Source of the DNA: Escherichia coli
GTDB lineage: Bacteria; Pseudomonadota; Gammaproteobacteria; Enterobacterales; Enterobacteriaceae
Reading direction: 5' to 3' (one strand)
Assembly (NCBI RefSeq): GCF_017348835.2
Contig: NZ_CP072312.1
DNA: 64,000 bases
Shown here piece by piece: positions 4,061-7,000 of this stretch. Position numbers: made by a program. Position 1 is the first letter of the stretch; the number at the start of each line of letters is the position of its first letter.

Positions 4061-7000
4061 TTAAGGGAAATTCGCATGTTGTATACAAAAGTCAACTTTA
4101 TTGATGCAACAGGATATACCTATTGCTGGGATAGATACTACAGACAAAAAATACTAAGGGGTTCCAAGCCGCAACTGAACCGCCCCGGTTTTCCTGGAGA
4201 GTGTTTTATCTGTGAACTCAGGCTGCCAGATCATTATTTCCGATGGAAGCATAATAAGCTTTTTCTGCTTCTGCCGGAGGAATATGGCCCAGCCTTTCCA
4301 GCAATCGTCGATTGTTATACCAGTCCACCCACGTTAGTGTGGCCAGTTCCACTTCTGCACGGTTTTTCCAGCTCTTACGGTGTATTACCTCCGCTTTGTA
4401 AAGACCATTGATGCTCTCAGCCATCGCGTTGTCATACGAGTCGCCAGTACTCCCTGTTGATGCCAGTAATCCGGCTTCCTTAAGCCGCTGCGTGTAGGCC
4501 AGCGATACATACTGAGAACCTTTATCACTGTGATGGATTGTGCCGGACGGCCGACGGGCCCACAACGCCTGCTCCAGTGCATCCAGCACGAATGTTGTTT
4601 CCATGGATGATGAGACCTGCCATCCCACGATGTATCCGGCGAACACATCAATGATGAACGCCACATAAACGAAGCCCTGCCATGTGCTTACCCAGGTAAA
4701 ATCAGCCACCCACAACTGGTCTGGACGTTCTGCCACGAACTGACGGTTTACGCGGTCGCATGCGGCAACGGCTTTCCGGCTGACGGTAGTGCGGACCTTT
4801 TTACCCCGGAGAACACCGGCAAGTCCCATAACTGCCATGAGACGTGCCACAGTGCATCTGGCCACTCTGATACCTTCCCGTAACAACTGACGCCAGACTT
4901 TACGCACACCGTATACCTGGTGATTTTCATCGTATACGCGCTGTATCTCTTTCTTCAGCCAGTCATCGTGCTGCGCACGGGCACTGCGTTTATCCGGATG
5001 ATGTCGCTGTTGCTGACAATGGTAATACGTTGACGGGGCAATATGCAGTTCGCTGCATACCGGTCCGACCCCGTACTGCTCACGCAGCTTATCCAGCAGT
5101 GGCATTATTTTTTCCAGAGGCGGTCGAACTCCGCCTTCGCAAAATAAGCGGAAGCCTGGCGAAGGATATCGTTACTGCGGCGCAGTTCACGATTTTCACG
5201 TTCCAGCTCTTTCAGACGCTGACGTTCAGCGGTGGTGAGTTCACCATCACCACTCCCGGTATCCCGCTCATGCTGGCGAACCCAGACACGCAGAGTCTCC
5301 GGCGTACAGCCAATCTTTGGGGCAATGGAACAAATTGCCGCCCACTGTGAGTCATATTCATCCTGACTTTCCAGAACCATACGAATCGCCCGCTGACGGA
5401 CTTCGGGGGAAAAACGAGTATTTTTAGTCATCCTGTTTACCTCTTTCTCAGGGAGTTTAGTCTCCAGGATTTCCGGGGCGGTTCAGGTATCCTGAAATAG
5501 CCCGCTGCACGGAGCGGGAGTTTGCGACCATTCTTGCCGGTATCAGCGCCGGCGGCATGTACTGCCCGGAGTGTGGCACGGTTCACTGGCCGGACGGAGT
5601 CCCCCCGCCCTTCTGATGCTTCCCCGTTTTGCCGACATTTTTCAGCAGGGAAACCGCTGGCTTAACTGGCTGGAGAAACAACCGGAAGGTTCTGTGCGTC
5701 CGGTGGTCATTGAGTCGGTGACAAAAATCATGGCATGCGGAACCACGCTGATGGGGTACACACAGTGGTGCTGTTCATCTCCGGACTGTTGCCACACAAA
5801 AAAGGTCTGCTTCCGGTGTAAAAGTCGCTCCTGCCCGCACTGCGGAGTGAAGGCTGGCGCACAGTGGATACAGTATCTGCTGAGTCTGGTTCCCGACTGT
5901 CCGTGGCAGCATATTGTGTTCACACTTCCCTGCCAGTACTGGTCCCTGGTGTTCCACAACCGGTGGTTACTGGCAGAGATGAGCCGCATTGCTGCGGATG
6001 TGATACAGGAAATCTGCCGCCAGGCAGATGTGGTGCCGGGGATATTCACGGTGATCCACACATGGGGACGTGACCAGCAGTGGCATCCGCACATTCACCT
6101 GTCGACAACGACCGGCGGCGTGACATCAGACCACACCTGGAAAAACCTTCATTTTTACGCCCGTAAGGTGATGAGTATGTGGCGTTACCGGATAACGCAG
6201 TTACTGTCACGGAAATATCCGGACCTGGTGATACCGGATGCGCTGGCAGCAGAAGGAAGCAGTAAACGGGACTGGAATCGCTTCCTGGACAGTCATTACC
6301 GGCGGGGCTGGAATGTCAACGTATCCCGGGTGATGGATAACGCCACACATGTGGCGGTGTACTTCGGCTCTTACCTGAAAAAACCGCCGGTGCCGATGAG
6401 CCGTCTGGAGCACTATGCTGGTCAGGATGAAATTGGTCTGCGTTACAACAGTCACCGGACAAAACGGGAAGAATACCTGGTGATGAGTGGTGATGAGTTT
6501 ATGGAAAGGTTCTCCTGGCATGTGGCGGATAAGGGGTTCCGTATGGTGAGGTACTACAGTTTCCTGAGTCCGGTGAAGCGCCGGTTACTGGAAGATGTTG
6601 TGTACGTCATAACGGAGACGGTGAGAAAGACGGCGATGCAAATCAGGTGGAGAGGGATGTATCAGCGGTTACTGAAGGTTGACCCGCTGAAGTGCATCCT
6701 GTGCGGATGTCAGATGCGTTTTACGGGGCTGAAGCGGGGCTACCGTCTGACAGAGCTGGTCCTGATGCATGAGCCACTGGCGCAACAGCGGGTGTGCGGC
6801 TGAGAGCCGCATCGGAGAAGTTGCGTCCATTTTCAGGGGAATGGGGTAAAAAACCATCAGTGATATGCAGTATCAATCGATAAGATCCATTTAATTGACG
6901 GCGGTGCACTCATGGCACGCAGGCAGTGTTGAATAAACATCCGTTTTTGGGTGTTTTTTTAATCTTTTTGGGATTTAAATTCCTATCGATCAAGCGGACC

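Follow-up and report, generated by a model that had tools for sequence, protein, structure and literature searches.

An IS91 copy very probably split by IS629 and then deprived of its left arm in an EHEC-type virulence plasmid of Escherichia coli

Results and discussion

Layout of the locus and IS629 copies in the window

The 64-kb stretch of DNA analysed in this work (the window) is part of an IncF virulence plasmid of the EHEC type that bears the etp genes for type II secretion as well as katP, stcE, ehx, ecf, repFII and repFIB, and it matches plasmid pF2_18C_FIB (NZ_CP043544) block by block at 99.5-100% identity. The locus under study consists of an IS629/IS1203-type element of the IS3 family on the minus strand (copy B, 1310 bp, 4176-5485), a remnant of IS91 on the plus strand (5486-6990), and the IS91 target tetranucleotide CAAG, read as 5'-CTTG on the other strand (6991-6994). 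Within the remnant, all on the plus strand, lie the 3' part of orf121 (5486-5616), the complete tnpA gene encoding a 395-aa IS91-family HUH/Y2 transposase (5616-6803), and the oriIS region (6804-6990).

Copy B was delimited by its ORFs and Pfam matches; orfA (5431-5105) and orfB (5105-4218), both on the minus strand, match HTH_Tnp_1 and rve, and the terminal repeats are TGAACCGCCCCGG. Its orfA-proximal end abuts the IS91 remnant, and its genes are transcribed away from tnpA. The features by which IS629/IS1203 is recognized were found, namely a length of ~1310 bp, orfA (HTH), orfB (rve), terminal inverted repeats and a 3-bp target duplication, which reads TCC at a nested copy in the window (copy D), AAG at the copy in pO157 and GGT at the same insertion in pUTAK-1. 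At copy B the duplication has been lost: the flanking bases are aac and ggt, and the left flank is the DNA upstream of katP, not IS91.

Six full IS629 copies, 97.8-99.8% identical, are present in the window (35-1344, 4176-5485, 25926-27235, 33943-36565 with 34352-35661 nested in it, and 45025-46334), together with a fragment of 87% identity at 10728-10977. Only the nested copy retains its target duplication, all others having mismatched flanks, which indicates repeated IS629-mediated rearrangement of the plasmid. A search among the window copies for matching 3-bp flanks, by which former duplications could be paired, gave no pairs, and the exchange partners therefore cannot be named from the window. 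The katP gene (1835-4045) lies between two directly oriented IS629 copies (35-5485), in a layout resembling a composite transposon.

Extent and ends of the IS91 remnant

The prototype of IS91 (X17114) is a rolling-circle insertion sequence of E. coli haemolysin plasmids, with the genes orf121 and tnpA and the ends terIS and oriIS. The ends of the element were set here by 10 full-length copies in 8 chromosomal or plasmid contexts, mutually 99.9-100% identical, which gave a length of 1828 bp, a left end CGAGTAGGCAGCC and a right end TTCCTATCGAT. The tetranucleotide next to the right end is GAAC in 7 contexts and CCAG in 1; the flanks of each copy are unrelated and show no target duplication. In these full-length relatives terIS corresponds to CGAGTAGGCAGCCTGGCGGCTGC, with a DNA fold z of -3.4 to -4.3. 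One member of the 90%-identity cluster bears the name ISEc37 family, and Orf121 is named 'IS91 orf2'.

The relatives share with IS91 a 121-aa Orf121 carrying the residues V49, L55, V61, L68, V75 and C105-x2-C108 (named in PMC13181058), the TGATG overlap of orf121 and tnpA, the Porf121 -10 box TATAAA in the terIS region, the PtnpA -35 box TTGCCG inside orf121, the CGAG (CTCG) terIS end with its subterminal palindrome, and CAAG/GAAC beside oriIS in the absence of target duplication. In that work, isoforms of IS91 sensu stricto are those with at least 95% identity to X17114.5 / CAD30457.1. Judged by the sequence features quoted there, all of which match, the element in the window is probably IS91 or a very close isoform, although the window copy differs in lacking nt 1-323 and in departing from the active isoform at 13 positions of tnpA, with six amino acid changes.

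Ungapped alignment to the full-length copies placed window positions 5486-6990 at nt 324-1828 of the 1828-bp isoform, with 99.1% identity and 13 mismatches, and thus the right-hand 82% of IS91 is retained. Homology begins exactly at 5486 (nt 324) and extends to 6990 (nt 1828), where the right end CCTATCGAT is followed by CAAG. The original prediction had placed an element with no clear 5' end at 5486-6803, and had proposed alignment with full-length IS91 elements as the check. This alignment confirmed both the left limit and the missing 5' part, and showed an incomplete element with only one of the two ends present; the right end, however, lies ~190 bp past 6803. The missing 323 bp comprise the terIS end, Porf121 and orf121 codons 1-78, and nt 1-323, with the terIS palindrome and the CGAG end, were found nowhere in the 64-kb window.

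With regard to the ends that characterize the IS91 family, an oriIS end adjoined by the target tetranucleotide occurs at 6990/6991, whereas the terIS end, defined by the CTCG cleavage site and a subterminal palindrome, is deleted from the window copy. The oriIS region, ending in ...TTCCTATCGAT, is identical to that of the active isoform, and its end is set by the same 10 full-length copies. Candidate subterminal palindromes were located at 6935-6956 and 6970-6983, and DNA folding gave candidate hairpins at 6935-6956 and 6957-6979, with energies no better than those of shuffled sequences (z -0.9 and +0.7, respectively).

Precursor state and probable loss of the left arm

A synthetic query in which IS91 nt 227-326 were joined to the IS629 end was used to find the reciprocal junction, which was detected in eight complete E. 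coli plasmids. In one of them, pUTAK-1-pO45 (NZ_CP157167), the order is espP … IS91 nt 1-326 / IS629 / IS91 nt 324-1828 / CAAGCGGACCCCATCTCC … yacB yacA, and the junctions read ...gacgaagGGT[IS629]GGTatcctg, as expected of a simple insertion with GGT duplication. The right flank is 97% identical to that of the window over 1285 bp, placing both copies at the same plasmid site. Since the same junction occurs here in a simple insertion, the IS629|nt 324 junction is the product of IS629 insertion, and comparison with pUTAK-1-pO45 identifies the GGT at 5486-5488 of the window (plus strand; IS91 nt 324-326) as the surviving right-hand copy of the IS629 target duplication. A distance of 1510 bp between the two IS91/IS629 junctions was also found in CP144927 and AP042520; in CP144931 and AP042674 the junctions are separated from each other or inverted. 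The IS91::IS629 of pUTAK-1-pO45 and its relatives resembles the window in plasmid site, IS629 insertion point and right flank, but these plasmids keep the left arm and the GGT duplication, whereas in the window the left arm is replaced by DNA upstream of katP, which lies beyond IS629.

The left partner of the junction varies among plasmids: it is the katP flank in the window, the ecf flank in pF2_18C_FIB and in contigs L019 and L022, and a truncated traJ (traJ') in five further contigs, which have no IS629 there at all. The left arm and the espP region are absent from the complete sister plasmid pF2_18C_FIB, and the left arm is absent from the 64-kb window as well. Furthermore, the orientation of a ~21.7-kb segment bounded by the inverted IS629 copies B and C (4176-27235) is opposite to that in pF2_18C_FIB; within this segment lie the IS91 remnant, yacAB, repFII, stcE and the etp secretion genes.

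Taken together, these comparisons make it very probable that an IS91 copy was split by IS629, that its left arm was then removed by way of IS629 copies, and that a dead remnant was left behind; this high confidence applies to the structural history, while the inertness of the remnant is held with less. According to the proposed course of events, a complete IS91 isoform would have resided just left of CAAG, upstream of the yacB/yacA toxin-antitoxin genes, in an IncF EHEC-type plasmid. IS629 would then have inserted in orf121 between nt 326 and 327, duplicating GGT, and a later rearrangement between IS629 copies, either homologous recombination or IS629-mediated inversion or deletion, would have uncoupled the halves. 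The right half (Δorf121, tnpA, oriIS and CAAG) would have stayed beside yacBA and repFII, joined through IS629 to the DNA upstream of katP, and the left half (terIS, Porf121 and orf121 codons 1-78) would have been lost. The anatomy of the remnant, its precursor, the changing partner on the left and the constant flank on the right were observed directly in the plasmids, while the order of events and the mechanism of the second step were reconstructed by comparing plasmids, not from a phylogeny. On this basis we infer that the loss of the left arm was a later event involving IS629 copies. The original prediction had attributed the truncation of an IS91-like element to either IS629 insertion or recombination; both causes appear to have acted, one after the other, given the precursor in pUTAK-1-pO45 and the absent duplication and katP flank in the window. 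With 64 kb of the source replicon in view, the left arm could also survive elsewhere in it, as in SCPM-O-B-9504, in which case the element would be split, not truncated.

The route of the second step admits one alternative of some weight, in which not homologous recombination between two IS629 copies but intramolecular transposition of IS629, causing an adjacent deletion or inversion, or else excision of the IEE type followed by repair, removed the left arm. IEE-dependent, microhomology-mediated excision of IS629 and IEE-dependent deletions adjacent to IS629 have been documented (PMC9943667), and the same junction in sister plasmids displays such marks, namely a microdeletion at the IS629 end (the L019 junction lacks 4 bp) and an IS629 excision bounded by microhomology (in L018, the traJ' fusion occurs at two bases, CA). 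In the traJ' form, window positions 46338 and 5486 have become adjacent, with loss of IS629 and of three native traJ bases (ATA), and this form fits IEE-dependent microhomology-mediated excision (PMC9943667). Loss of the target duplication is compatible with either route. On the other hand, six full IS629 copies of 97.8-99.8% identity offer ample substrate for copy-to-copy exchange, of which the reciprocal inversion that distinguishes the window from pF2_18C_FIB, between copies B and C, is a direct example. The data agree with both routes, and we regard this alternative as possible but rather unlikely.

In L020 (2738-3003), and also in L023, L018 and L021, IS629 excision has left traJ codons 1-44 fused in frame to orf121 codons 80-121, and at its 3' end the chimeric traJ'::'orf121 ORF overlaps tnpA by the native TGATG. 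As read from this arrangement, the traJ promoter and ribosome-binding site could drive the IS91 transposase in the fusion plasmids.

Expression signals and capacity for transposition

Comparison with the intact 121-aa Orf121 and translation of the frame showed that the orf121 remnant (5486-5616) runs from part of codon 79 to codon 121, with its TGA stop at 5614-5616. Two thirds of the gene have been lost along with terIS and Porf121, and the last 42 codons are left with no promoter and no start codon before Met103. The one-base TGATG overlap of orf121 and tnpA, a criterion of IS91 sensu stricto, is kept at 5614-5618. TTGCCG is retained at 5534-5539 (plus strand); in PMC13181058 this hexamer is identified as the -35 box of PtnpA, a weak internal promoter. 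Promoter boxes were read straight from the sequence and not from a consensus scan, which gave no match at the window junction and none in the intact element either, despite its experimentally validated Porf121.

In IS91, tnpA is expressed mainly from Porf121, the main tnpA promoter, which sits in terIS, aided by translational coupling to orf121, and the activity of PtnpA by itself is very low (<1 Miller unit when in its native configuration) (PMC13181058). Orf121 inhibits transposition and promotes accurate terIS recognition and cleavage, and without it both transposition and the share of one-ended events increase; for the origin end, the last 82 bp together with CTTG are enough, and the target tetranucleotide CTTG/GTTC must flank oriIS (PMC13181058). 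The window copy has thus lost the main promoter, the translational coupling, the Orf121 inhibitor and the termination end, and retains the PtnpA box, an open tnpA, an intact origin end and CAAG.

The HUH codons (H159 and H161, 6090-6098) and the codons for Y249 (6360-6362) and Y253 (6372-6374), all on the plus strand, align with invariant columns among 27 family members, and both the HUH and Y2 motifs are intact. TnpA of the window is 98% identical to IS91-type copies. The 13 nucleotide differences from the active isoform all fall in tnpA, and the six that change amino acids include G315S (6558-6560, plus strand), located in the R-Y-Y-G motif. The glycine replaced there is invariant: all 26 of the 26 homologues compared, with identities as low as 22%, have it, and so does the unrearranged copy of pUTAK-1-pO45. 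Nine of the 13 differences are clustered in 113 bp of the zinc-domain region (5693-5805) and are common to pUTAK-1-pO45, and the window differs from the pUTAK-1-pO45 copy of the same IS91 portion at 19 further sites, of which 14 lie in 6111-6335. The clustering suggests patchwise recombination among IS91 isoforms, and the 19 differences indicate that gene conversion or recombination among IS91 copies also took place.

In all 10 contexts read, the TnpA allele of the window (P0002) was found with the same ParE/YacB-repFII right flank, the oriIS-side sequence that goes with the IS629|nt 324 junction being CAAGCGGACCCCAT; the common active isoform (P0001), unlike P0002, sits at many unrelated sites. 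Because this flank is fixed and G315S affects an invariant glycine, the remnant is held to be inert: it is most likely a stranded, decaying half element that is now no more than a scar, with a transposase gene that is probably inert. Such a half element cannot transpose normally and could in principle undergo only one-ended transposition, dragging IS629 and katP along. Some residual one-ended activity is possible, given that tnpA is open, that the catalytic residues, oriIS and CAAG are intact, and that the effect of G315S is a predicted one.

The remnant could alternatively be a working one-ended module of the ISCR type, in which TnpA would start at oriIS and run into IS629 and katP, mobilising them. 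ISCR elements are terIS-less relatives of IS91 that mobilise adjacent genes. The remnant has their layout, with oriIS and transposase but no terIS, allowing only one-ended transposition; it differs from ISCR in being a recent accidental truncation of IS91 proper, with a transposase presumably outside the ISCR clade and no mobilisation seen. The open tnpA with intact HUH and Y2 motifs, the unchanged oriIS with its CAAG, and the position of katP on the terIS side of the remnant would suit such a module, as would the published findings that the final 82 bp and CTTG suffice and that loss of Orf121 favours one-ended events (PMC13181058). This proposal is nonetheless improbable, considering that the allele occurs with a single right flank, that the main promoter is deleted and PtnpA alone is so weak, that IS629 is transcribed away from tnpA, and that G315S strikes an invariant residue. 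An extended form of it, in which the combined loss of terIS, Porf121 and Orf121 would have turned the remnant, by analogy with ISCR, into an engine firing from oriIS and carrying IS629 and katP to new replicons, and in which traJ'::'orf121 might re-couple tnpA to the traJ promoter, is slightly less credible still.

For the inert half element favoured here, the consequence is mainly one of annotation: a gene labelled 'IS91 family transposase' is part of an element unable to transpose normally, and matters little beyond that. A rearranged IS91 half of this sort is nothing new in kind, being already-known, ordinary IS biology, and the locus documents IS629 as the agent reshuffling this virulence plasmid. 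The parts removed (terIS, Porf121 and Orf121) are the three that recent work credits with restraining IS91 and with precise excision, and it is therefore among natural truncations of this type that one would most obviously look for virulence genes nearby being mobilised by one-ended events; in the present case the findings speak for a dead copy.

Integrity of the transposase gene

The original prediction of an IS91-family transposase abutting IS629, which ends at 5485, proved correct: the mechanically called ORF (5571-6803) matches Pfam Zn_Tnp_IS91 (E 8e-19) and Y2_Tnp (E 2e-38), and scores 284 bits against the NCBIfam transpos_IS91 equivalog, whose cut-off is 125. The ORF was said to start within 90 bp of IS629, which holds for its GTG (5571, 86 bp away) but not for the true start, ATG 5616, at 131 bp and within the TGATG overlap with the orf121 stop. 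This start is given in the RefSeq annotation of identical DNA (395 aa), and the full-length copies concur. The suspicion that the first residues were not native was well founded, as the first 15 codons of the mechanical ORF overlap the orf121 tail in another frame and lie outside the protein.

That the transposase gene itself is 5'-truncated, its ORF start being an artefact of the IS629 junction, is refuted by the alignments; the notion draws on the GTG-led opening so near IS629 and its non-native-looking leader, but the same GTG-led ORF is present in intact IS91 elements, the 395-aa product read from ATG 5616 is that of the active full-length copies and of the RefSeq annotation, and the transposase covers positions 2-355 of 356 of transpos_IS91, from its residue 5, and 8-90 of 90 of Zn_Tnp_IS91. 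As judged by these alignments, the truncation affects the element but not the transposase gene, which has its full length. Finally, a complete IS91-family member with both ends present, for which the intact tnpA and right end would be the sole arguments, is refuted by the absence from the window copy of nt 1-323, including the terIS palindrome and CGAG end.

Comparison with pO157 and other plasmids

The pO157 plasmids of O157:H7 (e.g., CP073620) resemble the window in the order katP, IS629, IS91 remnant, toxin-antitoxin genes and repFII, and in the CAAG after the oriIS end. They differ in that the breakpoint, at IS91 nt ~220, is fused to the katP flank, IS629 is shifted 9 bp to the left and flanked by an AAG duplication of its own, the toxin-antitoxin module is another one, and tnpA is destroyed by a 609-bp insertion and two deletions. 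pO157 was rejected as the ancestor of the window junction, since its breakpoint at nt ~220 keeps sequence that is missing in the window and its tnpA is degraded. In pO157 (L006, 3601-5190), the DNA upstream of katP and IS91 nt ~220 meet in a TGA common to both, which is also how IS629 begins, and an earlier excision of IS629 by way of microhomology may have left this junction as its footprint.

To the right of the oriIS end, the DNA diverges between plasmids 0-14 bp past CAAG (window 6991-7650; L006 5191-6106; L001 5506-5761): yacB/yacA follow in the window, a RelE/CopG pair in pO157 and an HTH protein in p95NR1B, and then the repFII region in all three. In p95NR1B (L001, 1850-5505), a head-to-tail IS91 dimer with a period of 1828 bp lies inside an IS629-like remnant upstream of ehxC, the CGAG terIS end of the second copy following the oriIS of the first without a gap.
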